A DNA stretch of 64,000 nucleotides from an uncultured bacterium. Its GTDB lineage: Bacteria; Patescibacteriota; Saccharimonadia; UBA4664. The notes under the pieces were generated by a model. It saw nothing but the letters and a program-made list of their open reading frames with translations, did not search any database and was not told the origin of the DNA. Shown piece after piece: positions 333 through 60,351 of this stretch. The position numbers were made by a program, and so were the translations under genes. The stretch is from positions 593,026-657,025 of the forward strand of contig CAVUEQ010000001.1 in NCBI GenBank assembly GCA_963740635.1. The letters are read 5' to 3'. Within the stretch, counting starts at the first letter, position 1. Each line of letters starts with the position of its first letter.

Positions 333-345
333 TGCTTTTTAGCTA

Positions 346-801
346 AACCACCCTCACTTTCAGGTACACGCCCAGTGATAAACAGCTATACCATCACTTC
401 ACCTGCAACGGCGTGATCGGAGGGAACAGGGGTTGATAGTTTCATGTCGTAGTAGGGTTTTACAGATAAGAGGGCCTGTAATGGCGCTGATTATGAGGCA
501 ATTGGGCGGATTCTAAGGGTGACTGAGGCGCCTGGGCGGCGTTGCCGGTTTGGGGATTATTCCCAGTATTGCAATCTGTTTTTTTACCACTGCTTACGCC
601 CATTTCACTTCCCGTGGCAACCTGGTTTGGGCAATTAGGACTCCCAATAGGTCCAGACCACCGGATGAGTGATAAAAGTAGCTACACCATGCATTTTCGA
701 AACACGACGTCCTCCGAGCACGCCGGCTGCTGGCATATTCATGGCATAATAGGCCCACGATAGCCCCCTGCCGCTGGAGATGCCTGAAAGTGAGGGTGGT
801 T
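346..801. repeat. 19-bp perfect inverted repeat (346..364 / 783..801) bracketing a 418-bp non-coding segment
   Basis: AACCACCCTCACTTTCAGG at 346..364 is the exact reverse complement of CCTGAAAGTGAGGGTGGTT at 783..801. The interior has no convincing ORF. It carries an internal direct repeat, AGTGATAAA..AGCTA.ACCAT, at about 371 and about 668. Confidence 0.8.
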
Positions 802-866
802 GGACCTTTTTGCTTCCGGCAATATACCTAATGCTCTATGGGAGACGATGTGCTACAAGGCTAGGT

Positions 867-1295
867 ATGAACCAAAGCGATGATTTGACTCACCAGAAGT
901 CCACCGGGCGGGAGCGGAGATACCAGTTGTCCGCGGCGCTGCTTGAGCGGGTAGAAGCTTTGGCGGCCGCCAATCCGGAGGAAATATTTACGGTTTGGGG
1001 CGGGAATCTGAGGTGCTATTACGCCTCTGCGTCGACCACCATAGTGCGGCGGGGTTACCGTCCCGAGGAGATGATCGGGCACCACGCGCGGGAATATGTG
1101 CATGTGAGCGATATGGCTCATTTGTTACTCGCCAAGTCCGATACGGAATTGACAGGCAAATCGATAGAAATGACCGTTGCTTTTCGCAATAAGGATGGCG
1201 AGCGGATACGCGTCCGCAGCAAAACCGTACTAGTGAAGGACCCGGATAGCGGCAAACTGTTCTTTTTGACCCGAACGGTGCCGCTCGAGCGCTAG
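867..1295 (+). CDS. PAS-domain-like small cytoplasmic protein
   Basis: ORF track 780..1295, trimmed to ATG 867 (MNQSDDLTHQK...) because 780-866 overlaps the right IR arm and is AT-richer. The C-terminal part has a PAS-like pattern (GHHAREYVHVSD...MTVAFRNKDGERIRVRSKTVLVKD). Start is uncertain. Confidence 0.5.
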   Translation: MNQSDDLTHQKSTGRERRYQLSAALLERVEALAAANPEEIFTVWGGNLRCYYASASTTIVRRGYRPEEMIGHHAREYVHVSDMAHLLLAKSDTELTGKSIEMTVAFRNKDGERIRVRSKTVLVKDPDSGKLFFLTRTVPLER

Positions 1296-1314
1296 GCGGG
1301 CTCGCAGGTGCGGG

Positions 1315-3069
1315 TTATTTGGCGAGCTGGGGGGTGACCTCGGCGAGAGCCTGGGTCATCGTTTCGACCGCGACGCCGGAATTCTTGACGGCAGCCATGT
1401 CGGCGTCGAAGACGGCCGGGGTGGTGCTATACTCCCCTTCTTGCAGATCGGGGCTGATCTGGTGATACACGATGATGAGCCAGGTCTTGTCGTGGACGGC
1501 CTGATTGACCCAGCCCTGAACCTCAGCGGCGGTGGTGAGGTTGGTAATGTTTTGGACCCGCAGGCGGTAGAGGTCGGTGTCGTCCTTGGAATTGTAGCCG
1601 GGGTCGGTGGTGCGGTAGGACTTATAATACTTGGCCGCGGCAGCGATGGTCTGATTGTTGTAGGTGCCGTAGGGAGCGGCGAAGTCCGAAATGGGGCCGC
1701 CAAATTTATTGGTGAGCGTGGTCTGGCTGTTTTTGAGCTCGTTATTGAGCTTGGTGGCGTTCAGCGTGGTGAGGTCAAGGTGGTTGACGGTGTGGGAGCC
1801 AATTTCATTCCCGGCCTGCTTGATCGCCGAAATTTCGGCCACGGTCATATAGTCTGGCTGCTTAGTGAGGTAGCCGGAGATGATGTAATACGTCGCCTTG
1901 AGGCCGTATTTGTTCATGATGGGCAGACCCTGAGTGTACTGGTTGGCCCAGCCGTCGTCGAAGGTGAGAGTGACGATGGCACGGTTGAAACCGATGGGCG
2001 CGTAGGGCAGGAAGCTGAAATCGTTGGTGGTGAGGGTGCCGTTTTGGTACATCAGGTGCATGAGGCTGGCCTTGGCGACGCCGGCTGGTATGACGTACTC
2101 GAGGCGCAGGTGGGTCCAGGTGGAGGCGGCGAGCGCCGTGCCAACGTAGAGATACTGCATGGTGCCGTCGTTCATCGTAAGGGCAATGTCAACCTCAGAT
2201 TGCACACTCGACTTGTACCAGTCGGTGAACACATAGTCTTTGCCCGGCGTGACGGCCTGGGGGGTGTAGGCCCAGTTGGCGGTCCCGCTGGCGTAACCCG
2301 TGACTGTGAGGCCCAGGCTGCGCGAGCCGGTATGGCCGGTAGTGAGGTAGCTAAAAGCAGAGTTGTTGGTGCCCCAGCTCGAATGGGTCCAGTCTTGGGG
2401 CTGGCCGTTCACGGCCGTCTCGACCGACGGGTTCGGCACACCGGTGGCTGAGGGCGGAGGCGTGGGGGTTGGGCTCGGTGTTGGGGTTGGGCTCGGGGTG
2501 GGCGTAGGCGTGGGCGACGGCGATGCGCCGGCTGTGCCGAGCGCGAAATTATCGGTGGTGAGCGTGCCGTTGGCCGCGATCACGTGGAACACGGTGGCCT
2601 GCTTGGCGCCGGCCGGGGCGGTAAAGTTGGCCGAAAACTGCTTCCAGGCCGAGCTCGCGGATACTGCTCCCAGATCAAGGTAGCTGAGGTTGCCGGCGCC
2701 GTCGTCAATTTGGACGAAGGCGTTGGTGGCCACGGTCGACTGGTAGTAGTCACTGAAGGTGTACTGCGCGCCGCCGGTGACGGCCACCGGGGCAAAGTAC
2801 CATTTGGCGTCACCGTCGGTGTAGCCGCTCACGCTCACGCTGAGCGCGTGCGCACCGTCTTCGGCGCCCGAATTGGTGTAGCTAAAGACCGGAGTGTTGG
2901 CGCCCCAGTGACCCTGGAGCCAGCCGTCGGGGGCGCCGCCGGTGGCGGTTTCGGCCGAGGGGTTGGCTACCAGGTTCGGCCCGGCCGCACGGGCGCCGGC
3001 CAGTGGCTGCATGAGTCCGAGCAGGACCAACGCGGTGGCTAGAATTTGTGGCATTTTCTTGAATGTCAT
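1315..3069 (-). CDS. Secreted polysaccharide deacetylase (CE4/NodB domain) with two N-terminal CBM-like sugar-binding modules
   Basis: 584 aa. RBS AAGGAGGG precedes ATG 3069. Signal peptide MTFKKMPQILATALVLLGLMQPLAGARA. Two repeated modules of about 150 aa (NPS.E...P.GW...WG.N...FSY...TDNF) are separated by a PT-rich linker. C-terminal NodB motifs TFDDGW and HTVNH. Confidence 0.9.
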   Translation of the reverse strand: MTFKKMPQILATALVLLGLMQPLAGARAAGPNLVANPSAETATGGAPDGWLQGHWGANTPVFSYTNSGAEDGAHALSVSVSGYTDGDAKWYFAPVAVTGGAQYTFSDYYQSTVATNAFVQIDDGAGNLSYLDLGAVSASSAWKQFSANFTAPAGAKQATVFHVIAANGTLTTDNFALGTAGASPSPTPTPTPSPTPTPSPTPTPPPSATGVPNPSVETAVNGQPQDWTHSSWGTNNSAFSYLTTGHTGSRSLGLTVTGYASGTANWAYTPQAVTPGKDYVFTDWYKSSVQSEVDIALTMNDGTMQYLYVGTALAASTWTHLRLEYVIPAGVAKASLMHLMYQNGTLTTNDFSFLPYAPIGFNRAIVTLTFDDGWANQYTQGLPIMNKYGLKATYYIISGYLTKQPDYMTVAEISAIKQAGNEIGSHTVNHLDLTTLNATKLNNELKNSQTTLTNKFGGPISDFAAPYGTYNNQTIAAAAKYYKSYRTTDPGYNSKDDTDLYRLRVQNITNLTTAAEVQGWVNQAVHDKTWLIIVYHQISPDLQEGEYSTTPAVFDADMAAVKNSGVAVETMTQALAEVTPQLAK

Positions 3070-3193
3070 TTGTTGGTCCCTCCTTGGAACTCATTTCATC
3101 GAACATTTATGATACTCGAACGGATGATGGCCGGGGGCGCGAGGCCCCCGAAAGTACAGTTCGCGCGCGCGAGCTGCAAACTTGGCTAGCTGC

Positions 3194-3304
3194 TTACCTT
3201 CCGGCCCCGAACAAGCTCACAAGGAAGCTGCCCGTGGACAATAGGTGGTAAGCCACCACTACCGCGAGAGCCGCGGCGCCGGTGATACCAAGCAGGCGCT
3301 TCAT
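3194..3304 (-). CDS. 36-aa single-TM micro-protein
   Basis: Manual translation: MKRLLGITGAAALAVVVAYHLLSTGSFLVSLFGAGR. ATG 3304 lies 2 nt after the stop of the preceding micro-ORF. Below the ORF-track size cut-off. Confidence 0.35.
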   Translation of the reverse strand: MKRLLGITGAAALAVVVAYHLLSTGSFLVSLFGAGR

Positions 3305-3306
3305 GA

Positions 3307-3480
3307 TTAGCGCTTTGAGAACTTAGTGGCAGCCATGTAGACGATAGCCCAAACAGCGAGGCCGGCGGCCGCCGCGACGGCGATCTCCACAACGTTGCTC
3401 ACACCGGTCAGAGGCAAAACAGCCGCAGTGGTCGCAGCGCCTAGAACCGCAGGAACGGGGGTAGGAGTAGGTGTATACAT
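3307..3480 (-). CDS. 57-aa micro-protein with a C-terminal LPXTG-like sorting-signal architecture
   Basis: Manual translation: MYTPTPTPVPAVLGAATTAAVLPLTGVSNVVEIAVAAAAGLAVWAIVYMAATKFSKR. It has LPLTG, then a hydrophobic stretch, then a basic tail. RBS AAAGGA lies 7 nt before ATG 3480, and the ORF starts 15 nt after the GT2 stop. Confidence 0.45.
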   Translation of the reverse strand: MYTPTPTPVPAVLGAATTAAVLPLTGVSNVVEIAVAAAAGLAVWAIVYMAATKFSKR

Positions 3481-3494
3481 TACGCGTCCTTTCG

Positions 3495-4691
3495 TTAGTT
3501 AGTTACTGCCGCAGCATTCATGATGCGGTATCGGCGCCCAGCGGTAGTCCAGCCCGCTTCCGTGCTGAACTTGCGCTGGACGACGATTTCGTACCACGAC
3601 TTAAAGAACACAACCAAATTGACGAACCGCAACATATAGAACATCGGGAACGCCGCCACCACGCCAGGCCGGTGATTGAGGCGGGCCGACCAGATGGTGA
3701 ACATCAAGAAGATGACCATATCGTTGAGGAACATGAGGGCAAGCGGTGCGTAGTTTTGGCCCCACCAAGCCAAGAATGGCACTACGGTGAGCTCCAGCAA
3801 CAGCACCACCTCCTCCAGGATCATGAAGCCCATGTAGGCGTCGAGGCGGTGGGGGCGCAGGCCCACCTTGTGCCGGAGCATCACCTGCCAAGCGCCCCGG
3901 TACCAGCGGGAAATCTGCTTCCAGTAGTCGCCGAAGTCCTTGGGGTCCTGGGTGAAGGCCTTGGCCTGCGGAATGTAGGCGATTTTGCCGATCTTCTGGC
4001 GGTGGATCTGCATGGTGAGGTCCATGTCCTCGGTCAACGACGGTTGGGTGAAATCGAGCTGGTCGATAATGTCGGTCCGGAACACGCAGGTGGCGCCGGG
4101 GATCACGGGGATGACGCCGAGGAAGTTCTGGATGCGCCGCATTATTTCCAGGCCGAGGGTGTACTCATAGGTGCGGTATTTGGAGATCCAACCGCCCTCG
4201 AGGCTCTGGACATGGCCGGTGGCCGCCACGAACGAATCGTCGAGGCGGGCCTTGAGCTCGTCGAAGTAGCTCGGGGTAAACACGCCGTCGGCGTCGGCGA
4301 TGTGGACCCAGGTGTAGCGCTGCTCGATGCCGAAGTGCTTGATGCCGCCCAGGATCGCCATGGCCTTGCCGCCTTGGGGCTGGGCGAAGACGTTGTACCA
4401 CGGCAGGTGCGAGAGCGCGATGAGCACGGTGGTGTCAATGGAGCCGTCGGACACCACGAAAATGTCGGCGGCGTCCATGCCGGCGGCCAGCGCCGAGCGC
4501 ACCGTGGCGGCAATCACCACCTCCTCGTTGTGAGCAGGCAGAATGAGTGCGATCGAGCGCTTGGGCTCCGCGGGTGATTTAGCTGTGGCGATGTCTTGCA
4601 TGAAATGGTGAATGCTCTTGTTACTAAAATCAGAGGGCCGCAGCAAGCGCTGCAGTACCCTCTGATATCCTTTTATTTCCGAATTAAACAT
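3495..4691 (-). CDS. Processive family-2 glycosyltransferase (IcaA/PgaC/NodC/chitin-synthase-like beta-glycan synthase)
   Basis: 398 aa. Motifs ILPAHNEE, VSDGS, TEDMDLT and QISRW (QxxRW). Several C-terminal TM helices. Confidence 0.9.
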   Translation of the reverse strand: MFNSEIKGYQRVLQRLLRPSDFSNKSIHHFMQDIATAKSPAEPKRSIALILPAHNEEVVIAATVRSALAAGMDAADIFVVSDGSIDTTVLIALSHLPWYNVFAQPQGGKAMAILGGIKHFGIEQRYTWVHIADADGVFTPSYFDELKARLDDSFVAATGHVQSLEGGWISKYRTYEYTLGLEIMRRIQNFLGVIPVIPGATCVFRTDIIDQLDFTQPSLTEDMDLTMQIHRQKIGKIAYIPQAKAFTQDPKDFGDYWKQISRWYRGAWQVMLRHKVGLRPHRLDAYMGFMILEEVVLLLELTVVPFLAWWGQNYAPLALMFLNDMVIFLMFTIWSARLNHRPGVVAAFPMFYMLRFVNLVVFFKSWYEIVVQRKFSTEAGWTTAGRRYRIMNAAAVTN

Positions 4692-4722
4692 TGTGAAGTA
4701 ATCTCGTCATTTTGTCAACCCC

Positions 4723-6120
4723 CTATTTGGTTCCTTCCCGGTTTTGCGTCTTCAGGTAGGCTGAATGCATGGTCTCGATAGACAGCCCGGAAGCCTTCAC
4801 GCTCACCAGATCGGTCTCAAAGTCGGCCGGCGATCGCGAGTACTCACCCCCGTTGGCGGCCACCTGGTGGTACACCAGGATGAGCCAAGTGTGGTTTTGC
4901 TTGGCGGTGGTAAGCCACGCGCGCATCTGCATAGGGGTGGTGTCGGCGCGGACGTTTTCAACCTTGAGCTGGTAGGGGTTGAGGGCGTCGGGCGAGTTGA
5001 AGCCGACCTCGGTGGAGCGGGAGGTTTCGTAGAGGGACTTCACGGCTGCGGTGGTTTGGGCATTGCTGGCGCCAAAGGGCGGCGCGAAATCAGCGACGTC
5101 ACCGTAGCACTTGGTGAGGCCGTCGTGGGACAGCTTGACCTGCTTCTGCAAATCCTGGTCGCTGAGCTTGGTGAGGTCGGGGTGGTTGTAGGTGTGGGAG
5201 GCCACCTCGTGGCCGGCTTTGGTGAAGTCATAAACCTGGCCCGGGGTCATGTACTGGTTTAGCTGCCCCAGGAAGCCGGACACGAGGTACTGCGTGCTCA
5301 CCACGCCGTAGCTGTTCAGCAGCGGCAGCGCGTTGTCGTGGATGCTGCGCCAGCCGTCGTCGAAGGTGAGAGAGACCATGCCGGTGGCAAAGCCGGGGGC
5401 GGTAGCCGATTGCAGGGTGTAATTGTCGGTTTCAAGCCAGCCGGCGCGGTCGAGCGGGTGCGAAATTTGGATCTCGGTGACGTCGGCCGGCACGAAGAAA
5501 CGCTGAGTGTAGAGCGCCCAGCCGTCGGAGGCGGCGGTGGTGTCGAGGTTCACGAATTGCTGCTTGCCGCTAGCCTCCTTGAGCATGAGCACGGCGCGGG
5601 TGGTGACGTTTGAGCGGTAATTGTCCTGGAATTGGTAGTAGGCGCCGGGGGTGACCGCGAGGTTGCCGGTGAACCAGTCGGCGGTGCCGTCGGTGTAACT
5701 GCCGACGTCGATGCGCAGGCCGGTGCGGGAGCCGTAGCCGGCCACCACGGTGAAGCGGCCGTCGTTGCGGCCGTAGGCGTTACTGTCCCAGCCGCGCGGG
5801 TGGGTGCCGGCCGAGGTTTCCAGGTTGCCGTTAGGAACGAGGTTGCCGGAGGTGAGGGTGACCGGGGCGTACTCGACGCCCGGCCCGAGGCCGGCCGCGT
5901 CGGGCAGGGTCACGGCTTCGTCGGAATGCACATCGGCCTGGACCGAGCTGGGGGCCTTGGCGTGGGCGATGAAAGCGCCGGCCGAACAGCGGCTGTCGGT
6001 GATGGCTTGGCCAATATCAATCGTGCCGCGGCCGAGGGCGTAGGAGCCGGAGGCAGCAAGCAGGACGAGGATAATTAGAAAAGCGCGAAATTTAGTTAAC
6101 ACTCTAGGGCAAAGCCACAA
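4723..6120 (-). CDS. Secreted polysaccharide deacetylase (CE4/NodB) with one N-terminal CBM-like module
   Basis: 465 aa. TM/signal segment FRAFLIILVLLAASGSYALG. CBM-like module (VPNGNLE...GWDSNAYG...TDNY). NodB motifs TFDDGW and HTYNH. The start could be TTG 6120 or GTG 6102. Confidence 0.9.
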   Translation of the reverse strand: MWLCPRVLTKFRAFLIILVLLAASGSYALGRGTIDIGQAITDSRCSAGAFIAHAKAPSSVQADVHSDEAVTLPDAAGLGPGVEYAPVTLTSGNLVPNGNLETSAGTHPRGWDSNAYGRNDGRFTVVAGYGSRTGLRIDVGSYTDGTADWFTGNLAVTPGAYYQFQDNYRSNVTTRAVLMLKEASGKQQFVNLDTTAASDGWALYTQRFFVPADVTEIQISHPLDRAGWLETDNYTLQSATAPGFATGMVSLTFDDGWRSIHDNALPLLNSYGVVSTQYLVSGFLGQLNQYMTPGQVYDFTKAGHEVASHTYNHPDLTKLSDQDLQKQVKLSHDGLTKCYGDVADFAPPFGASNAQTTAAVKSLYETSRSTEVGFNSPDALNPYQLKVENVRADTTPMQMRAWLTTAKQNHTWLILVYHQVAANGGEYSRSPADFETDLVSVKASGLSIETMHSAYLKTQNREGTK

Positions 6121-6183
6121 TTACAATCGGTCATTATACCCAAACATTAGCATTATGTCAATAACGCTTAGCCCGAATAAATC

Positions 6184-6215
6184 AAAAAACACCGGCACTG
6201 CGGCGGGTGTTTTTT
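6184..6215. terminator. Bidirectional intrinsic-terminator-like hairpin
   Basis: AAAAAA-CACCGGCACTGCGGCGGGTG-TTTTTT. An imperfect GC stem is flanked by an A6 run and a T6 run. It lies downstream of the 6283..7440 gene. Confidence 0.55.
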
Positions 6216-6282
6216 GGAATAATGCCGTAGGCGGCGGGGACGAGGCTGTGTGCCCCGTCCCCCCGCATGACCGCATCGAACC

Positions 6283-7440
6283 TCAGTGCTTGAACTCTGG
6301 CCAGTTCCGGACAGTGCGGATCACCGACTGGACTGCTTGGGTCTCGCCGGGAATCTGCGTCATGTAGGGATAGAAATAGAACAAGATGTTCTTCACGTGA
6401 GCCTTCACCAAGTCGCGGATGGTCTGGACCATCACGTCGGGTGGCGGGGCGCCCTGGTTGGACTTGGCCGGGTTGGGCGGGAAATGGAAGTGCGTGACGT
6501 TGTCGGGCTCGTTGACTGCGTAGCTGAAAGCCTGGATGGCCATTCCGCTGTGCTTCGACCCGGCTGACGACACGACAGCAGCCGCCATCGTGCCCATGTA
6601 TGCGACGGTGCCGTAGGTCTGCGTCTGGCCGTCTGGTCCGGGCGGGTTGCCGTAGTCGCGCGTGTTGTCCGGGTAGGCGTAGTAGTCGCCCACCAAGTCG
6701 TCGGTGGCAGTCTTCACCATACCTAGGAACTTCTGGTTGCCATCGCCGTTGTTGTACATGGTGACGAGGGCGTGCTTCTTGGTGATGCGGTGGAGCTCAT
6801 CGAAGCGGTGCTTGAGCAGCGGCAGATTCTGAGCCACGTCGTCCAGGCTTCCGGGCAGCTCGTCGCTGAGGTAGTAGCGCGAGATCACCGAGTGGTATGG
6901 GCTGTTCTCGAACCAGTTCACGATAGCTTCAAACTCAGCGTCGGTGTTGATGCCGTCGAGCTGCTCGGAGGTGAGCGGTTGTCCGCCGTTGGCCGCCACG
7001 GCCTGCTTGATGCAGGGATCGTTCGGGTCCACCTGGTTGGTAAACTGGTGGTGGAAGTGCTCGTCGACCAGATCCGGGTCGAGGTCCTTACAGCCGATGA
7101 TGTCCTTGAGCGGGACCACCTGCTTGACGTGCAGGATATGGGAATCGCTGAGCACGCCGTTGATCTTGGACTTGTCCGCGTTGAGTAGCGAGTAGTTGAT
7201 CTCCTCATCGATCTTGGCGGACTTATCGGCGGCCATCAGCAGGCCGTCGCGGAACGCCTGGGTGCCGGGCTGGCCGGAGTCGAACATGGAGATCAGGACC
7301 GGCTGGTTCTGGTGGAGCACGATCAGGCCCGTTACCGAGCCCGCGATTGCCAGGACGGCGATCACGGCCAGTACTACGACGGTGCGAAACCGGGGTTGGT
7401 GTAAGCGCCGCGGTCGATCACGTTGCGCACGATCAGTCAT
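6283..7440 (-). CDS. N-terminally membrane-anchored extracytoplasmic protein, function unknown
   Basis: 385 aa. Basic N-terminus followed by a TM helix (TVVVLAVIAVLAIAGSVTGLIVL). No motif I recognise. Candidate promoter TTGACC-17-TAAAGT on the minus strand at 7533..7505. Confidence 0.75.
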   Translation of the reverse strand: MTDRAQRDRPRRLHQPRFRTVVVLAVIAVLAIAGSVTGLIVLHQNQPVLISMFDSGQPGTQAFRDGLLMAADKSAKIDEEINYSLLNADKSKINGVLSDSHILHVKQVVPLKDIIGCKDLDPDLVDEHFHHQFTNQVDPNDPCIKQAVAANGGQPLTSEQLDGINTDAEFEAIVNWFENSPYHSVISRYYLSDELPGSLDDVAQNLPLLKHRFDELHRITKKHALVTMYNNGDGNQKFLGMVKTATDDLVGDYYAYPDNTRDYGNPPGPDGQTQTYGTVAYMGTMAAAVVSSAGSKHSGMAIQAFSYAVNEPDNVTHFHFPPNPAKSNQGAPPPDVMVQTIRDLVKAHVKNILFYFYPYMTQIPGETQAVQSVIRTVRNWPEFKH

Positions 7441-16044: not shown

Positions 16045-17031
16045 TTAACCCTTGCGCTCGATTAGGTCGAGGGCTTTGGCGGCAATGTGGGGCGCGGTGA
16101 GGCCGAAGGCTTCCAGGAGCTCGCCGGGGGCGCCCGATTCGCCGAAGCGGTCGAGCATGCCGATGCGGGTCATGGGAACGGGGTGATGGTCGGCCAGGGT
16201 TTCGGCCACGGCGCCGCCCAGGCCGCCGGCCGCTTGGGCTTCTTCGACCGTCAAGACAGCTCCGGTTTTGCGGGCGCTGGCGACGATGGTGACGGTGTCG
16301 AGCGGCTTGACGACGGCGGCGTTGATGACCTCGGCCTCAATCCCCTTCTTGGCCAGTTTTTCGGCGGCTACCAGCGCCTGGTAGACCATGGTGCCGCAGG
16401 CCACGATGGTGACGTCTTGGCCGAGGCGCAGTACTTGGGCTTTAGCGAGCGAAAATGGGGTTTTCTCGGTAGTGATGACCGGCGTTTTTTCGCGCGCCAG
16501 CCGGATGTAGGCCGGGCCGCGGTGCTTGGCCAGCACCAGAGTAGCCTTGGCGGCCTCTTCGGCGTCGGCCGGCACCACCACGATCATGTTGGGCAGCACG
16601 CGCATGAGGGCGATGTCTTCGAGCATTTGGTGGGTGGCGCCGTCGGGGCCAACCGACACGCCGGCGTGGCTGCCCACGATTTTAACGTTGGTGTCATTTA
16701 GGCAGATGGTGGTGCGGATTTGCTCCCAGTTGCGGCCTGGGCTAAACGCCGCGTAGCTCGACACGAACGGCACCTTGCCGGCCAGCGCCATGCCGGCGCC
16801 CACCGTTACCAGATTTTGCTCGGCCACGCCGATCTCCACGAACCGCTCGGGGTAGCTCTTGGCAAATTCGTCCATCTTGGTACTAGCGGTGAGGTCAGCG
16901 CACAACGCTACCACGTTTTTGTTGGTGTGGCCGGCCTCCAGCAGCCCGCGCCCAAAGCCCGCGCGAATCGGCTCCTGGGCGATTTCCTTGCTCAGGATAT
17001 CAGGGACGAGATGTTGCTGCGGCTCGATCAC
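16045..17031 (-). CDS. tkt: Transketolase, C-terminal subunit (pyrimidine-binding plus C-terminal domains)
   Basis: 328 aa. Motifs EIGVAEQNLV, GATHQMLEDIALMR and the C-terminal TVEE...GGLG. Confidence 0.92.
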   Translation of the reverse strand: MIEPQQHLVPDILSKEIAQEPIRAGFGRGLLEAGHTNKNVVALCADLTASTKMDEFAKSYPERFVEIGVAEQNLVTVGAGMALAGKVPFVSSYAAFSPGRNWEQIRTTICLNDTNVKIVGSHAGVSVGPDGATHQMLEDIALMRVLPNMIVVVPADAEEAAKATLVLAKHRGPAYIRLAREKTPVITTEKTPFSLAKAQVLRLGQDVTIVACGTMVYQALVAAEKLAKKGIEAEVINAAVVKPLDTVTIVASARKTGAVLTVEEAQAAGGLGGAVAETLADHHPVPMTRIGMLDRFGESGAPGELLEAFGLTAPHIAAKALDLIERKG

Positions 17032-17079
17032 AGATTAATGATAGGCGGCCACGCCGAAAAACGCAAAATGCTTACGCCT

Positions 17080-17376
17080 TTAAGTCGCGGCGCGGGTTCG
17101 CAACGCTTGTTTAATATGGCGCACTTCAATCCGCAGCTCAGTTACATCCTTCGTCAAGCGATCGAGGCGATCGTCAGCATCGTCAAAACGATTGTCGATA
17201 TCCTTTACGGCCGGCTCAAAGTTCATCTCTATGAAGCTTTGAAACTCGCCTCTCAGTACGTTGACCTCGTTGCGAACGAGTTGCTTCGTGTGATCCCGCT
17301 CCTTTACAAAGCGTTTATCCATTTGCTCGTCGAGCATTTTTCGAAAATCTTCTAAATTGAAGTCGACTTGGGGCAT
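17080..17376 (-). CDS. Small acidic coiled-coil protein, unknown function
   Basis: 98 aa: MPQVDFNLEDFRKMLDEQMDKRF...DRLDRLTKDVTELRIEVRHIKQAL. RBS GGAG. Sits in an AT-richer patch between the two transketolase halves. Confidence 0.55.
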   Translation of the reverse strand: MPQVDFNLEDFRKMLDEQMDKRFVKERDHTKQLVRNEVNVLRGEFQSFIEMNFEPAVKDIDNRFDDADDRLDRLTKDVTELRIEVRHIKQALRTRAAT

Positions 17377-17462
17377 GAGGCGTCTCCGTTACGTTCGATA
17401 TTACAGACCTTAACAGATCTATTCTACCGAACAAAAAGCGAAAATGCAATCTGCGCCAGAAA

Positions 17463-17600
17463 TTATTTGGACGGGCTGAGGAGGTCTTTGATGACTATGA
17501 ATTCGAAAGCCGCCAAGACTGCTATGCTGCCGACGGCGAAGGCGCCTAATGCGAGCGAGCCGGCGGAATCGTAACCGGCGGGCAGCGCATTGCCGCCCAT
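17463..17600 (-). CDS. 45-aa single-TM micro-protein (tentative)
   Basis: Manual translation: MGGNALPAGYDSAGSLALGAFAVGSIAVLAAFEFIVIKDLLSPSK. RBS AGAAGG lies 3-4 nt before ATG 17600. Confidence 0.3.
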   Translation of the reverse strand: MGGNALPAGYDSAGSLALGAFAVGSIAVLAAFEFIVIKDLLSPSK

Positions 17601-17711
17601 GACCTTCTCTACGCCCGAGATTAGCCCAAACGGAATGACAAGGGTGCTGGCAAAGGCGTACGGGTCGTCAGCAGTTGACGGATACGATTGGACCGCCGAA
17701 ATGGCCGGCGA

Positions 17712-18584
17712 CTACTCATGCTCGCTCCGGATGCGGCCGCCGAGGGTGCGGAGCTCGTGGAGGGCGATGCGGGCCTGGTCTTTTTTGCGCGGGTCGCCGG
17801 GGAGGTCCTGGGTGCCGGGCGGGTTGCCGTGCCAGCGGTAGTCGTACTCCATGTAGTCGACGCCCTTACCAGGGATGGTGTGGGCGATGATGGCGACGGG
17901 TGCCTCCACGATGGCCTTGGCCAGGTTGCAGGCGTCGATGATGGCCTGGAAGTTGTGGCCGTCGATTTCGATGACGTGCCAGCCGAAGGCGGCGAACTTC
18001 TGGGCCAGGTCGCCGAGCGGCATAACGTGCTCGGTGGTGCCGTCGATCTGGATGTTGTTGCGGTCGATGATGGCGGTGAGGTTGGCGAGCTTGTACTTGG
18101 CGGCGAACATGGCCGCCTCCCAGATGTTGCCCTCGTCGAGCTCGCCGTCGCCGGTGACCACGTACACGTGGGCCTTGTTTTGGTCCATGCGCAGGGCGAG
18201 CGCGTGGCCGGCGGCCTGGCTGAGGCCGCTGCCGAGCGGGCCGGAGGTGGATTCGAGGCCGGGCAGGCGCAGGCGCTCGGGGTGGCCCTGGAGCCGCGAG
18301 CCGAATTTGCGCAGGGTGGCCAGCTCGCTCACCGGGAAGTAGCCGGCGCGGGCCATGGTGGCATAGCGCACGGGCACGCAGTGGCCGTTTGAGAGAAACA
18401 GGCGGTCGCGGTCGGGCCAGTCGGGTTGCTTGGGGCGGTGGTCGAGGATTTCGAAGTAGAGGGCGGTGAAGATGTCGGCCAGGCCGAGCGGGCCGGCGGA
18501 GTGGCCGGAGCCGGCTTCCACCAGCATGTTGATGATGTCTTCGCGAATCTGCTCAGCTTGAAGCTCGAGCTGCTTGTGCGTCAT
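17712..18584 (-). CDS. tkt: Transketolase, N-terminal subunit (thiamine-diphosphate-binding)
   Basis: 290 aa. Motifs GSGHSAGPLG, DRLFLSNGH and GDGELDEGNIWEA. Confidence 0.92.
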   Translation of the reverse strand: MTHKQLELQAEQIREDIINMLVEAGSGHSAGPLGLADIFTALYFEILDHRPKQPDWPDRDRLFLSNGHCVPVRYATMARAGYFPVSELATLRKFGSRLQGHPERLRLPGLESTSGPLGSGLSQAAGHALALRMDQNKAHVYVVTGDGELDEGNIWEAAMFAAKYKLANLTAIIDRNNIQIDGTTEHVMPLGDLAQKFAAFGWHVIEIDGHNFQAIIDACNLAKAIVEAPVAIIAHTIPGKGVDYMEYDYRWHGNPPGTQDLPGDPRKKDQARIALHELRTLGGRIRSEHE

Positions 18585-25397: not shown

Positions 25398-25496
25398 GGT
25401 GTTCCAGTATATGGAATTTTCCGATGTTCTTAGCCTCAAATTTTGGACCGAATTCCATATACTGGAACACCTTTTGAATGCGCGTGAAAAAAATAG
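25398..25496. repeat. AT-rich hairpin element, copy A (21-bp perfect stem, 32-nt loop, conserved 3' tail)
   Basis: GGTGTTCCAGTATATGGAATT (25398..25418) pairs perfectly with AATTCCATATACTGGAACACC (25451..25471). The tail is TTGAATGCGCGT..AAAAAATAG. A near-identical element sits at 60250..60351. Confidence 0.85.
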
Positions 25497-57868: not shown

Positions 57869-57960
57869 GCGCGAGCTCCGCCTTAAATCTACGTATTTAT
57901 ATCATAAAAGTTGGCATTAATGAAGTAGTTGCCGGCTTCCACGACGATCTTACGCAGACC

Positions 57961-57985
57961 GTAAATGTCGAAAATCGACATTTAC
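57961..57985. promoter_or_regulatory. 25-bp perfect palindrome upstream of the lysC operon
   Basis: GTAAATGTCGA-AAA-TCGACATTTAC, 93-117 nt upstream of lysC ATG 57868. Confidence 0.45.
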
Positions 57986-58040
57986 CGAATTACCGCACAG
58001 CTAAGTTAGGCCGGCAAACCCCGCCGATGGGTCTGCCCTA

Positions 58041-59707
58041 TTAGAAGTGGTCGCGGATGTGGGACATGTTGAACTCCCAGTCGGCGTCGGCTTTTTTGTG
58101 CGGGTTAAAGATGTTATGCGGGTCGAAAATATGTCTTGGTTTCTTCGAACAGTAGCCGAAGATTTCCTGGCCGTACATCTCTTCCAGCCACGGCCCGCGG
58201 ATCATGCCGTCGTTGTGCTCGCCGGAAAGTACGCCGCCGTATTTTAGCACCAGTTCATTAACTTCACGCATGGCCGGCGGAGTTTCTGGCGCTCGTGCGG
58301 GTCTTCGATCTTCATAAGCGGAATGACGTGGAAGTTACCGTCGCCCATATGGCCAGCCATGGTGGCGAAGAGTTTGTATTTCTTGATGATCTTGCGCAGT
58401 TTGGGCAGAAATTCCGCAGATGCGCGGCGGCACCACCAAATCATCTATGAACGGCGCCGTGTGCTTATCTTTGACTTTCTGCTCAGCAACTGAAAGCTTT
58501 CGCGGCGCATGATCCAGAACTTGTCGGCTTTGACCTCGGTATCGTCTTCTTCCAAGCCTTCAATTTCGTATAGGCCCGCTTGGTCACAAGTTGCGGTCGC
58601 ATAGCGTGGACCTTTTCCCGAACCTCTTCCGCGGTATCAGCCGTGAATTCCACCAGCAGTACCATTTTGGGGATGCCCCTGAGCAGCAGCAGGCCGTCGG
58701 GATGAAGCTGATCAAGCTAATTTAAAAAGCCGCCCCGGCCAAGCATTTACGGAAAATAGGGCAAGAATTTGATGGCCAGCATCAGCGTGACGTCGTCAAA
58801 AGATTCGAAAGTGGCCGGTTGTGCTTGCATTACGTCTTTGATGAGCTCGCCCAGGTGTTCAATGTCCCTCAGGAAAACCACCAGCACGCCGGAATGCGGG
58901 CGGTGCGGGACGAGCTTGAAGTGTGATGTCGGTGGTGAGGCCGAGCGTGCCTTGGGCGCCGACGATGAGCTTGGTCAGGTCGAAAATGCCGGTCTCGCGG
59001 TCCCAGACGTCCCACAGGTTGTAGCCGGTGGAGTTTTTGGTGACGTGGGGCTTGGCGGCTTTTTGATGGCGTCGTAATGCTGGTCGACGAGCTCGAAGGT
59101 CTGGCGGTAGACCTCGCCCTCGAAGGTGGATAGCTGCATTTTGTTGTCGAGCTCGGCCTTGGTGAGCGGGGCAAAAGTCGTACTCATTGCCGTCGGCCAG
59201 CACGACTTTGAGCTCGGTCACAAAGTTTTCGGTTTTGCCGAATTCGAGCGACTTCTCGCCGCCGGAGTTGTTGTTGACCATGCCGCCGATGGTACAGAGG
59301 TCGCGGCTGGCGGGGTAGCTGGGCATGAGAGCTTGGTGCTCGAAGGTGGCCTTTTCGAAGTCGCGGTAGTACACGCCGGGCTGGGCGTGGCCGCTCTCGG
59401 AGGTGACCTCGAAGATCTGGTTAAAGTGCTTAGTGAAGTCGGCCACTATGGAGTCGCCGACGGCCCCGCCCGACATGTTGGTGCCGGCGCTGCGGGCGGT
59501 GATGGAGAGGTTGGAGTTGGCACTCTTGGTTTTGTGCTCCTTGGCGTACTTGACTAGCGCTTGCACGTCCTGCGAGTCCTTGGGATACACCACGACCTGC
59601 GGCTTCACCTCGAACAGGCTGGCGTCGTGGGAGTAGGATTCGAGGGTGGCGGGAGCGGTGTCGATTTCGCCGGACAGAATGCGGGAAAGATCTTCTTTGA
59701 GGCTCAT
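58041..59707 (-). pseudogene. FAD-linked oxidase (GlcD / D-lactate dehydrogenase family), disrupted by multiple frameshifts
   Basis: Family-typical peptide segments are spread over five ORF-track fragments in different frames (58859..59797, 58975..59187, 58483..58665, 58244..58444, 58041..58271). Examples: GTNMSGGAVG; TGYNLWDVWDRETGIFDLTKLIVGAQGTLG; MAGHMGDGNFHVIPLM; SGEHNDGMIRGPW...FDPHNIFNPHKK. My manual reading needs about 9 frame changes, several at A/T homopolymers. Confidence 0.8.
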
Positions 59708-60249: not shown

Positions 60250-60351
60250 GGGTGTTCCAGTATATGGAATTTCTCCGGTTTGGTGAGGGGAAAGTATTCC
60301 AAAAATTCCATATACTGGAACACCTACTTGATGCGCGTATTCAAAAAATAG
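60250..60351. repeat. AT-rich hairpin element, copy B
   Basis: GGTGTTCCAGTATATGGAATT (60251..60271) pairs with AATTCCATATACTGGAACACC (60304..60324). The tail is CTTGATGCGCGT..AAAAAATAG. Same orientation as copy A. Confidence 0.85.

Follow-up and report, generated by a model that had tools for sequence, protein, structure and literature searches.

A perfect 19-bp inverted repeat around non-coding DNA between divergent genes: possibly the orphan relic of a mobile element

Introduction

Invertible DNA segments, or invertons, have been described mostly in bacteria of the gut and in pathogens, and the recombinases that act on such DNA can do so from a distance. The core sites of recombinases are usually dyads made of two half-sites; the DNA ends bound by transposases are asymmetric. 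Long-range pairing is also found at the RNA level, and the fold-back of the hok mRNA provides a closing helix between its 5′ and 3′ parts. Miniature inverted-repeat elements (MITEs) of prokaryotes are typically shorter than 500 bp, have terminal repeats of about 4-30 bp, are AT-rich and reside in AT-rich intergenic DNA (PMC10969869). Their transcripts form stem-loops, and the terminal repeats of Correia elements are cleaved by RNase III when they are part of a transcript (PMC10969869). The copy number of a MITE may be as low as one per genome, and the direct repeats that flank it decay with age (PMC10969869). Among the invertible segments, the flgB switch of C. difficile consists of 154 bp with 21-bp repeats, has no promoter of its own, acts after transcription initiation and is flipped by a distant recombinase, RecV (PMC5386303).

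In this work we analysed a segment located near the left end of a 64-kb window (the whole stretch of DNA under analysis). An earlier note on this DNA had described a perfect inverted repeat enclosing a non-coding segment between two divergent genes, and had offered three readings of it: an invertible switch, a MITE or a large structured RNA. The anatomy and the genomic context given in the note stood, and the three readings could be narrowed to an element acting at the level of DNA, none of them being confirmed.

Results

The left arm of the inverted repeat, AACCACCCTCACTTTCAGG, occupies positions 346-364. The right arm, CCTGAAAGTGAGGGTGGTT, is its exact reverse complement, occupies positions 783-801 and was also found in the Logan contig ERR11718635_1218595. 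The two arms are complementary at 19 of 19 positions across a spacer of 418 nt, which makes a segment of 456 bp in total, and the outer ends of the repeat are sharp, with pairing absent at 345/802 and 343/804. Sequence comparison and Markov simulations were used to assess the pair. It is the sole perfect inverted repeat of at least 17 nt present in the window at spacers of 50-3000 nt, and 40 first-order Markov simulations of 64 kb yielded no perfect inverted repeat at k≥17. The perfect repeat around 418 bp proposed earlier was thus confirmed, and we conclude that it is real and non-random. Further matches to the 19-mer in the 64-kb window were absent at up to three mismatches (0.00 were predicted by shuffles). 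Reading the sequence of a single arm showed that it is not palindromic; the only symmetry within it is weak, a 5+5 dyad (CCTCA/TCAGG). The helix that the two arms can form has Watson-Crick pairs at all 19 of its 19 positions and zero G-U pairs. Lacking wobble pairs, it is equally complementary on both strands, which suggests a constraint on DNA rather than on RNA.

The 418-nt interior of the segment (365-782) was analysed by codon usage, six-frame search, copy search and folding. Its GC content is about 50%, as compared to about 60-65% in the coding regions on its right. The view that this stretch has no credible open reading frame (ORF) was confirmed. All ORFs inside the segment had negative codon-usage scores, their GC3 was flat at 0.33-0.57 (for comparison, the PAS gene described below has a GC3 of 0.68 and the deacetylase gene one of 0.81), and the concatenated six-frame translation of the interior had no match at E≤1 among 5.8 billion protein clusters. 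A hidden gene or a pseudogene was rejected on the basis of these results.

The interior includes further repeats. A nested inner inverted repeat is formed by CGGCGTGATCGGAGG (409-423) and CCTCCGAGCACGCCG (711-725), which pair at 14 of 15 positions; its score in the shuffle test was 12.5, and the best of 60 shuffles reached 11.0. A weak inverted similarity was also detected between the ends of the segment, covering about 105 nt inward of each arm (its score was reached by 4/300 shuffles), and inverted similarity across the whole halves of the segment was not significant (17/300 shuffles). The internal direct repeat mentioned in the earlier note is present on the plus strand, with one copy, AGTGATAAACAGCTATACCAT, at 373-394 and the other, AGTGATAAAAGTAGCTACACCAT, at 667-689, and proved marginal, its score of 11.5 just exceeding the 11.0 of the best among 60 shuffles. 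Folding located a terminator-like signal on the plus strand in the middle of the segment (536-585), which consists of an interrupted hairpin at 536-579 and a run of seven T residues (T7) at 579-585. The hairpin has a dG of -14.9 kcal/mol (z -2.0); the opposite strand reaches -8.3 kcal/mol and has no T run. Comparable signals (T run of at least 6 and dG ≤ -15) occur seven times in 128 kb, which corresponds to a weak p of about 0.05 for the signal at 536-585. An IHF consensus site was not found in the segment.

The segment fills most of a 626-bp intergenic region, and the divergent pair of genes reported around it was verified. The gene on the left starts at position 240 on the minus strand, and its 5′ part (1-240) is followed by the edge of the window, which truncates it. 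This part has a codon score of +0.29, a GC3 of 0.69 and no Pfam family, and the encoded product has a signal-peptide-like N-terminus followed by a sequence rich in H, D and K. The putative secreted fragment (MLVLKNAIMTLTLGTALVSPSVALACDNQHVDHSK...) comprises 80 aa and, besides belonging to no Pfam family, has no relative in the protein collection. The gene on the right (867-1295, plus strand) codes for a PAS-domain protein of 142 aa (PF08447 PAS_3, E 5.8e-7), a length at which it was called in two assemblies.

The left gene has a promoter of its own outside the inverted repeat, as had been stated. This strong sigma-70-type promoter reads on the minus strand from 332 to 304 and lies 13 nt outside the left arm. 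Its sequence, TTGACA-17-TGnTATCAT, includes an upstream TG and agrees with the consensus at 11 of 12 positions; with a position weight matrix (PWM) score of 16.0 it is the best promoter match in the region, only seven sites in 128 kb reaching a score of 12. On the plus strand, the DNA preceding the PAS gene has as its best candidate a weak promoter-like site, TTAGAA-18-TATACT, at 295-324, which reads into the left arm, yet its PWM score of 8.3 is at background level (72 sites reach at least 8 in 128 kb). That it serves as a promoter for reading into the left arm is something that we only infer. Promoter-like sites above background were absent from both strands inside the segment, and no sigma-70 promoter was recognisable in the 66 nt (802-866) that separate the right arm from the start codon of the PAS gene. 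Because a promoter could not be detected in this latter stretch, the PAS gene may be transcribed through the segment.

The location of the arms with respect to the two genes could be explained if they were two copies of one protein-binding site that serve the two divergent promoters or form a DNA loop, and CCTGAAAGTGAGGGTGGTT is indeed found upstream of each gene in that gene's own direction of transcription. We regard this explanation as highly improbable. The same 19-mer precedes both genes in the same relative orientation, and on the left side it is located 13 nt upstream of the -35 hexamer, a position typical of activators. However, the sequence at the equivalent distance on the right, TCCGGC-17-ATGGGA, is not a promoter, the 64 kb contain no further occurrence of the motif at up to 3 mismatches, and no IHF consensus site is available for looping. 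Two binding sites would also leave unexplained the 418 nt of non-coding DNA and the nested repeats. A related possibility, symmetric promoters beside each arm, was discarded, as the right side lacks a promoter at the corresponding distance.

The DNA adjacent to the arms was inspected for traces of an insertion. The hexamer CTTTTT is found 5 nt outside the left arm (335-340, plus strand) and again 4 nt outside the right arm (806-811), an arrangement with p of about 0.02 by shuffling. Because of this offset the two hexamers count as a direct repeat that is displaced, not as a target-site duplication abutting the arms, and adjacent direct repeats of 2-10 nt beside the arms were all absent. The flanks of the segment have 38-46% GC, and the whole 1-900 stretch is lower in GC than the remaining window. 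The other 63 kb are ordinary chromosomal housekeeping DNA with genes for pentose-phosphate and glycolytic enzymes, F-type ATP synthase, the aspartate pathway and purine synthesis, as well as polysaccharide deacetylase and glycosyltransferase genes. The earlier note had seen no recombinase in the window. Pfam scans of the 69 ORFs of at least 90 aa led to the same result, and they detected no integrase or transposase either.

Other features of the window are recorded here as observations in their own right. The transketolase is split over two genes (16045-18584), the N-terminal part being encoded at 17712-18584 and the C-terminal part at 16045-17031, with an ORF of 98 aa between them. A stretch of about 990 bp (57869-58858) between the aspartate kinase and FAD-binding protein genes has no ORF of at least 90 aa and no Rfam match at the gathering threshold; it includes a T6 run at 58092 that is preceded by a stable hairpin (-18.3 kcal/mol). 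A second palindrome, unrelated to the inverted repeat described above, occurs in two copies (25398-25471 and 60251-60324). Both have perfect arms of 21-23 bp, GGGTGTTCCAGTATATGGAATTT / AAATTCCATATACTGGAACACC, a spacer of exactly 32 nt that differs in sequence, and a common right-hand flank, TTGAATGCGCGT..AAAAAA. The copies are located between co-directional minus-strand genes, lipase/PLD in one case and purA/acylphosphatase in the other, and Rfam had no match for them. This palindrome may represent a hairpin of the REP or MITE type, two paired operators, or an RNA hairpin whose loop varies.

The possibility of a large structured RNA was evaluated by family searches and by folding. A scan of the whole window with Rfam 15 at the gathering threshold gave 0 matches, and a scan of positions 200-950 in E-value mode gave only matches with E>1. 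The best match below threshold reached 14.8 bits, where 86.3 are required. Among the chance-level candidates examined and rejected was RAGATH-26 (14.8 bits, E 7.1), which shares CUGAAAGUG.GGGU with the right arm. Neither a tRNA nor a tmRNA was found. The fold that includes the arms was more stable than those of shuffled sequences, with z values of -2.56 (plus strand) and -4.12 (minus strand). The interior alone (365-782) was no better than shuffled sequence (z +0.36, plus strand; -0.72, minus strand). A fold that is stable with the arms and not without them indicates that the entire folding signal is the inverted repeat itself.

According to this RNA reading, the 19-bp helix would close either a large structured RNA encoded by the segment or a long, structured leader at the 5′ end of the PAS mRNA; in one version the RNA would be a toxin mRNA of the hok type, kept locked by pairing of its 5′ and 3′ parts, whose small hydrophobic ORF would lie at 550-672. 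Besides the z values obtained when the arms are counted, it can draw on the nested long-range pairings that were predicted, the weak promoter-like site at 295-324 pointing into the left arm, the terminator-like signal at 536-585 and the absence of a promoter from the stretch that links the right arm to the PAS gene. The promoter candidate, however, is only at background level, and the 19/19 Watson-Crick helix without G-U suits both strands equally. None of the candidate small ORFs is preceded by a Shine-Dalgarno sequence, their start codons are TTG or GTG, their codon scores are negative, and homologues from which covariation could be derived were not found in the genome, metagenome, viral, plasmid and phage collections. 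Having neither an Rfam family nor an interior more stable than its shuffles, the structured RNA is disfavoured among the readings that had been offered, and we consider it very unlikely. The segment is a DNA-level feature and not a recognisable RNA.

The earlier note recommended a search for further copies, and no second copy of the segment came up in the window or in the three public collections covered. The 64-kb window has no second copy of the interior, and blastn comparison of the segment with plasmid and phage collections gave no match. In the representative genomes of 185,579 species, the JGI metagenomes and IMG/VR, the exact 19-mer had single matches only, all in unrelated contexts and mostly representing one conserved sequence context in Photorhabdus. 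The exact 19-mer never occurred as a pair in these three collections, and none of its matches there had an insertion-sequence-like context, a search that ends differing by 1-2 nt would escape.

The PAS protein belongs to a very small family, since only one other cluster of relatives, with 67% identity, was found among 5.8 billion. In the contigs that code for these relatives (L034-L037), the PAS gene is preceded by a 146-bp spacer and then by a different, divergently oriented membrane-protein gene. No segment bounded by inverted repeats is present in the L034-L037 spacer, and synteny is lost on both sides. A tblastn search with the protein encoded by the left neighbour gene of the relatives had no match. 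These contigs could not be taken as a true empty site because they are too distant (67% protein identity) and the left side is not syntenic. Smith-Waterman comparisons aligned positions 704-787 with L034 2173-2258 (a score reached by 1/300 shuffles) and the reverse complement of 440-496 with L034 2302-2366 (reached by 8/300 shuffles). The idea that the segment is a relic of ancestral sequence was nonetheless rejected, as nhmmer at maximum sensitivity had no match at E≤100 and, with several alignments having been tried, these two are attributable to chance. As far as can be seen from the sequences compared, the segment is specific to this lineage.

These results bear on the possibility that the repeat is a neutral scar, i.e., a 19-bp inverted duplication that arose once by template switching or illegitimate recombination while the low-GC left-hand region was acquired, with no mobile origin and no function. 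A scar would account for a single-copy segment that has no relatives in any collection searched and no target-site duplication, promoter or recombinase. It would also be in keeping with the lower GC content of the whole 1-900 stretch and with the loss of synteny with the relatives exactly at the segment. On the other hand, the usual products of template switching are short-range hairpins, whereas the present repeats are separated by 418 nt, chance would not be expected to give a perfect 19-mer repeat, and the nested repeat and the subterminal inverted similarity suggest that the palindromic architecture was originally longer. We consider this origin unlikely.

The orientation of the segment was compared between two assemblies only, which agreed; the second of them, the Logan contig ERR11718635_1218595 (L001/L002), covers positions 655-801 of the segment. 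This contig corresponds to window positions 655-6409 with the exception of five substitutions in 5,755 bp, all within genes. A near-identical strain is thus present in the independent metagenome run ERR11718635. The contig passes unbroken through the right arm and 128 nt of the interior, and its orientation is that of the window. Its break at 655 was considered as a sign of a repeat or an inversion and discarded, as it is not located at an arm and the other end of the contig lies inside a gene; the break is likely due to low coverage.

An invertible switch would require that a site-specific recombinase encoded elsewhere flip positions 365-782 by crossover within the 19-bp arms. The segment has what this calls for in its layout, namely inverted repeats flanking a short intergenic segment beside a gene that is a candidate for regulation. 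With its perfect 19-bp arms and 418-bp interior, the segment falls inside the range seen for verified invertons (PMC11602134), the single copy and the missing target-site duplication are as expected, and identical arms beside diverged flanks fit homogenisation by recombination. The segment also adjoins the gene of a secreted protein and lies upstream of a gene of the signalling type. With no promoter inside it, such a switch would act after the start of transcription. In the orientation sequenced, the PAS-sense strand carries the hairpin and T7, and transcripts arriving from the left would be attenuated by them, which would not be the case after a flip; the strand asymmetry of the terminator-like signal at 536-585 agrees with this arrangement. 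The flgB switch of C. difficile is a precedent for a promoter-less 5′ leader (PMC5386303), and since that switch lacks a promoter, the missing promoter is not decisive against an inverton.

Other observations speak against inversion. Neither strand of the segment has a promoter-like site above background, the promoter of the left gene is entirely outside it, and the 69 ORFs of the 64 kb on the right side include no recombinase or integrase. In length the segment exceeds most verified invertons, more than 75% of which have fewer than 300 bases (PMC11602134). Dyad symmetry of the kind usual in recombinase core sites is absent from each arm, the Logan contig, an independent assembly, keeps the same orientation through the right arm and 128 nt of interior, and the terminator-like signal reaches only p of about 0.05. 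What the earlier note had proposed about a switch held for size and repeat geometry, and an internal promoter and a recombinase within 64 kb were not found. Taken together, we find the inverton doubtful. One specific form of it, in which a distant recombinase flips the 418-bp interior and puts the hairpin and T7 on or off the sense strand of a transcript starting left of the segment, so that the small PAS protein phase-varies, is distinctly unlikely.

Discussion

We tentatively favour, as a possibility and not more, that the segment at 346-801 is what remains, in this lineage only, of a non-autonomous element with terminal inverted repeats at its two ends. Such a relic would most likely be an orphan, either MITE-like or an insertion sequence minus its transposase, located in an AT-rich divergent control region. 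Two of the properties of MITEs were found, these being terminal inverted repeats, perfect at 19 of 19 positions and within the usual range of about 4-30 bp, and a size of 456 bp, below 500 bp, with no transposase or coding capacity. Two others were missing. There is no target-site duplication, as no 2-10 bp repeat is adjacent to the arms and just the displaced CTTTTT is present, and no cognate autonomous insertion sequence was found, the window having no transposase and the exact 19-mer no insertion-sequence-like context in the three collections. The MITE proposed earlier stands as far as geometry is concerned; a target-site duplication is absent, and neither a second copy nor a cognate insertion sequence turned up in the window or in the collections searched. 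As the copy number of MITEs can be one and their flanking repeats decay, the MITE reading survives only as an orphan relic.

Several characteristics argue for the relic. The 19-mer is asymmetric and in this resembles the ends bound by transposases. The similarity between the two ends falls from the perfect 19 bp to a patchy one further in, which includes the 14/15 block at 409-423 / 711-725. The segment, at about 50% GC, is less GC-rich than coding DNA, and the PAS orthologue (67% identity) does not have it. The second palindromic element, found twice in the window, indicates that small repeat elements occur in this genome. There are also points against the relic. A missing target-site duplication fits poorly with arms that are perfect and apparently young. 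The 64 kb hold no second copy of arms or interior, and neither a family nor a parent insertion sequence is known from the searches; the window has no transposase, and the relatives give no true empty site.

If the segment is a relic of this kind, it would have arrived by insertion, and its flanks would have changed since, with the loss of the target-site duplication. The element would now be immobile, and its present-day effect, if any, would be a side effect. Should the PAS transcript run through the segment, the arms would form a 19-bp RNA duplex that is likely to be a substrate of RNase III, as in the case of Correia elements, and the central hairpin with its T7 run could attenuate the read-through PAS transcript.

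The significance of the segment depends on which of these readings is right. A mobile-element relic would be an ordinary example of small inverted-repeat elements reshaping promoter regions. If the inversion were true, the segment would be a promoter-less switch of the terminator type from a poorly studied soil lineage, which would be of moderate interest.

Comparison with known systems places the segment near three of them. As in hok-type closing helices, the ends of a unit of about 450 nt can pair, in this case over 19 bp; unlike such RNAs, the segment matches no RNA family, its interior folds no more stably than shuffled sequence, and neither a credible small ORF nor a homologue was found. 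With fimS-type and Bacteroides-type invertons it shares short inverted repeats around a few hundred intergenic base pairs upstream of a gene, and it differs from them in having no promoter inside, no dyad in the arms and no recombinase in 64 kb. It is closer in one respect to the flgB switch, since both are promoter-less, the recombinase of flgB being distant (PMC5386303). From larger prokaryotic MITEs, such as QMITE1 of Coxiella (about 400 bp) and the Correia elements of Neisseria, it differs in having no adjacent target-site duplication, a single detectable copy, no family members in the collections searched, no cognate insertion sequence and no internal promoter or IHF site. Like these MITEs, it is non-coding, shorter than 500 bp and bounded by arms within the 4-30 bp range, is AT-richer than the host genome, lies in an intergenic control region and would form a long stem if transcribed.
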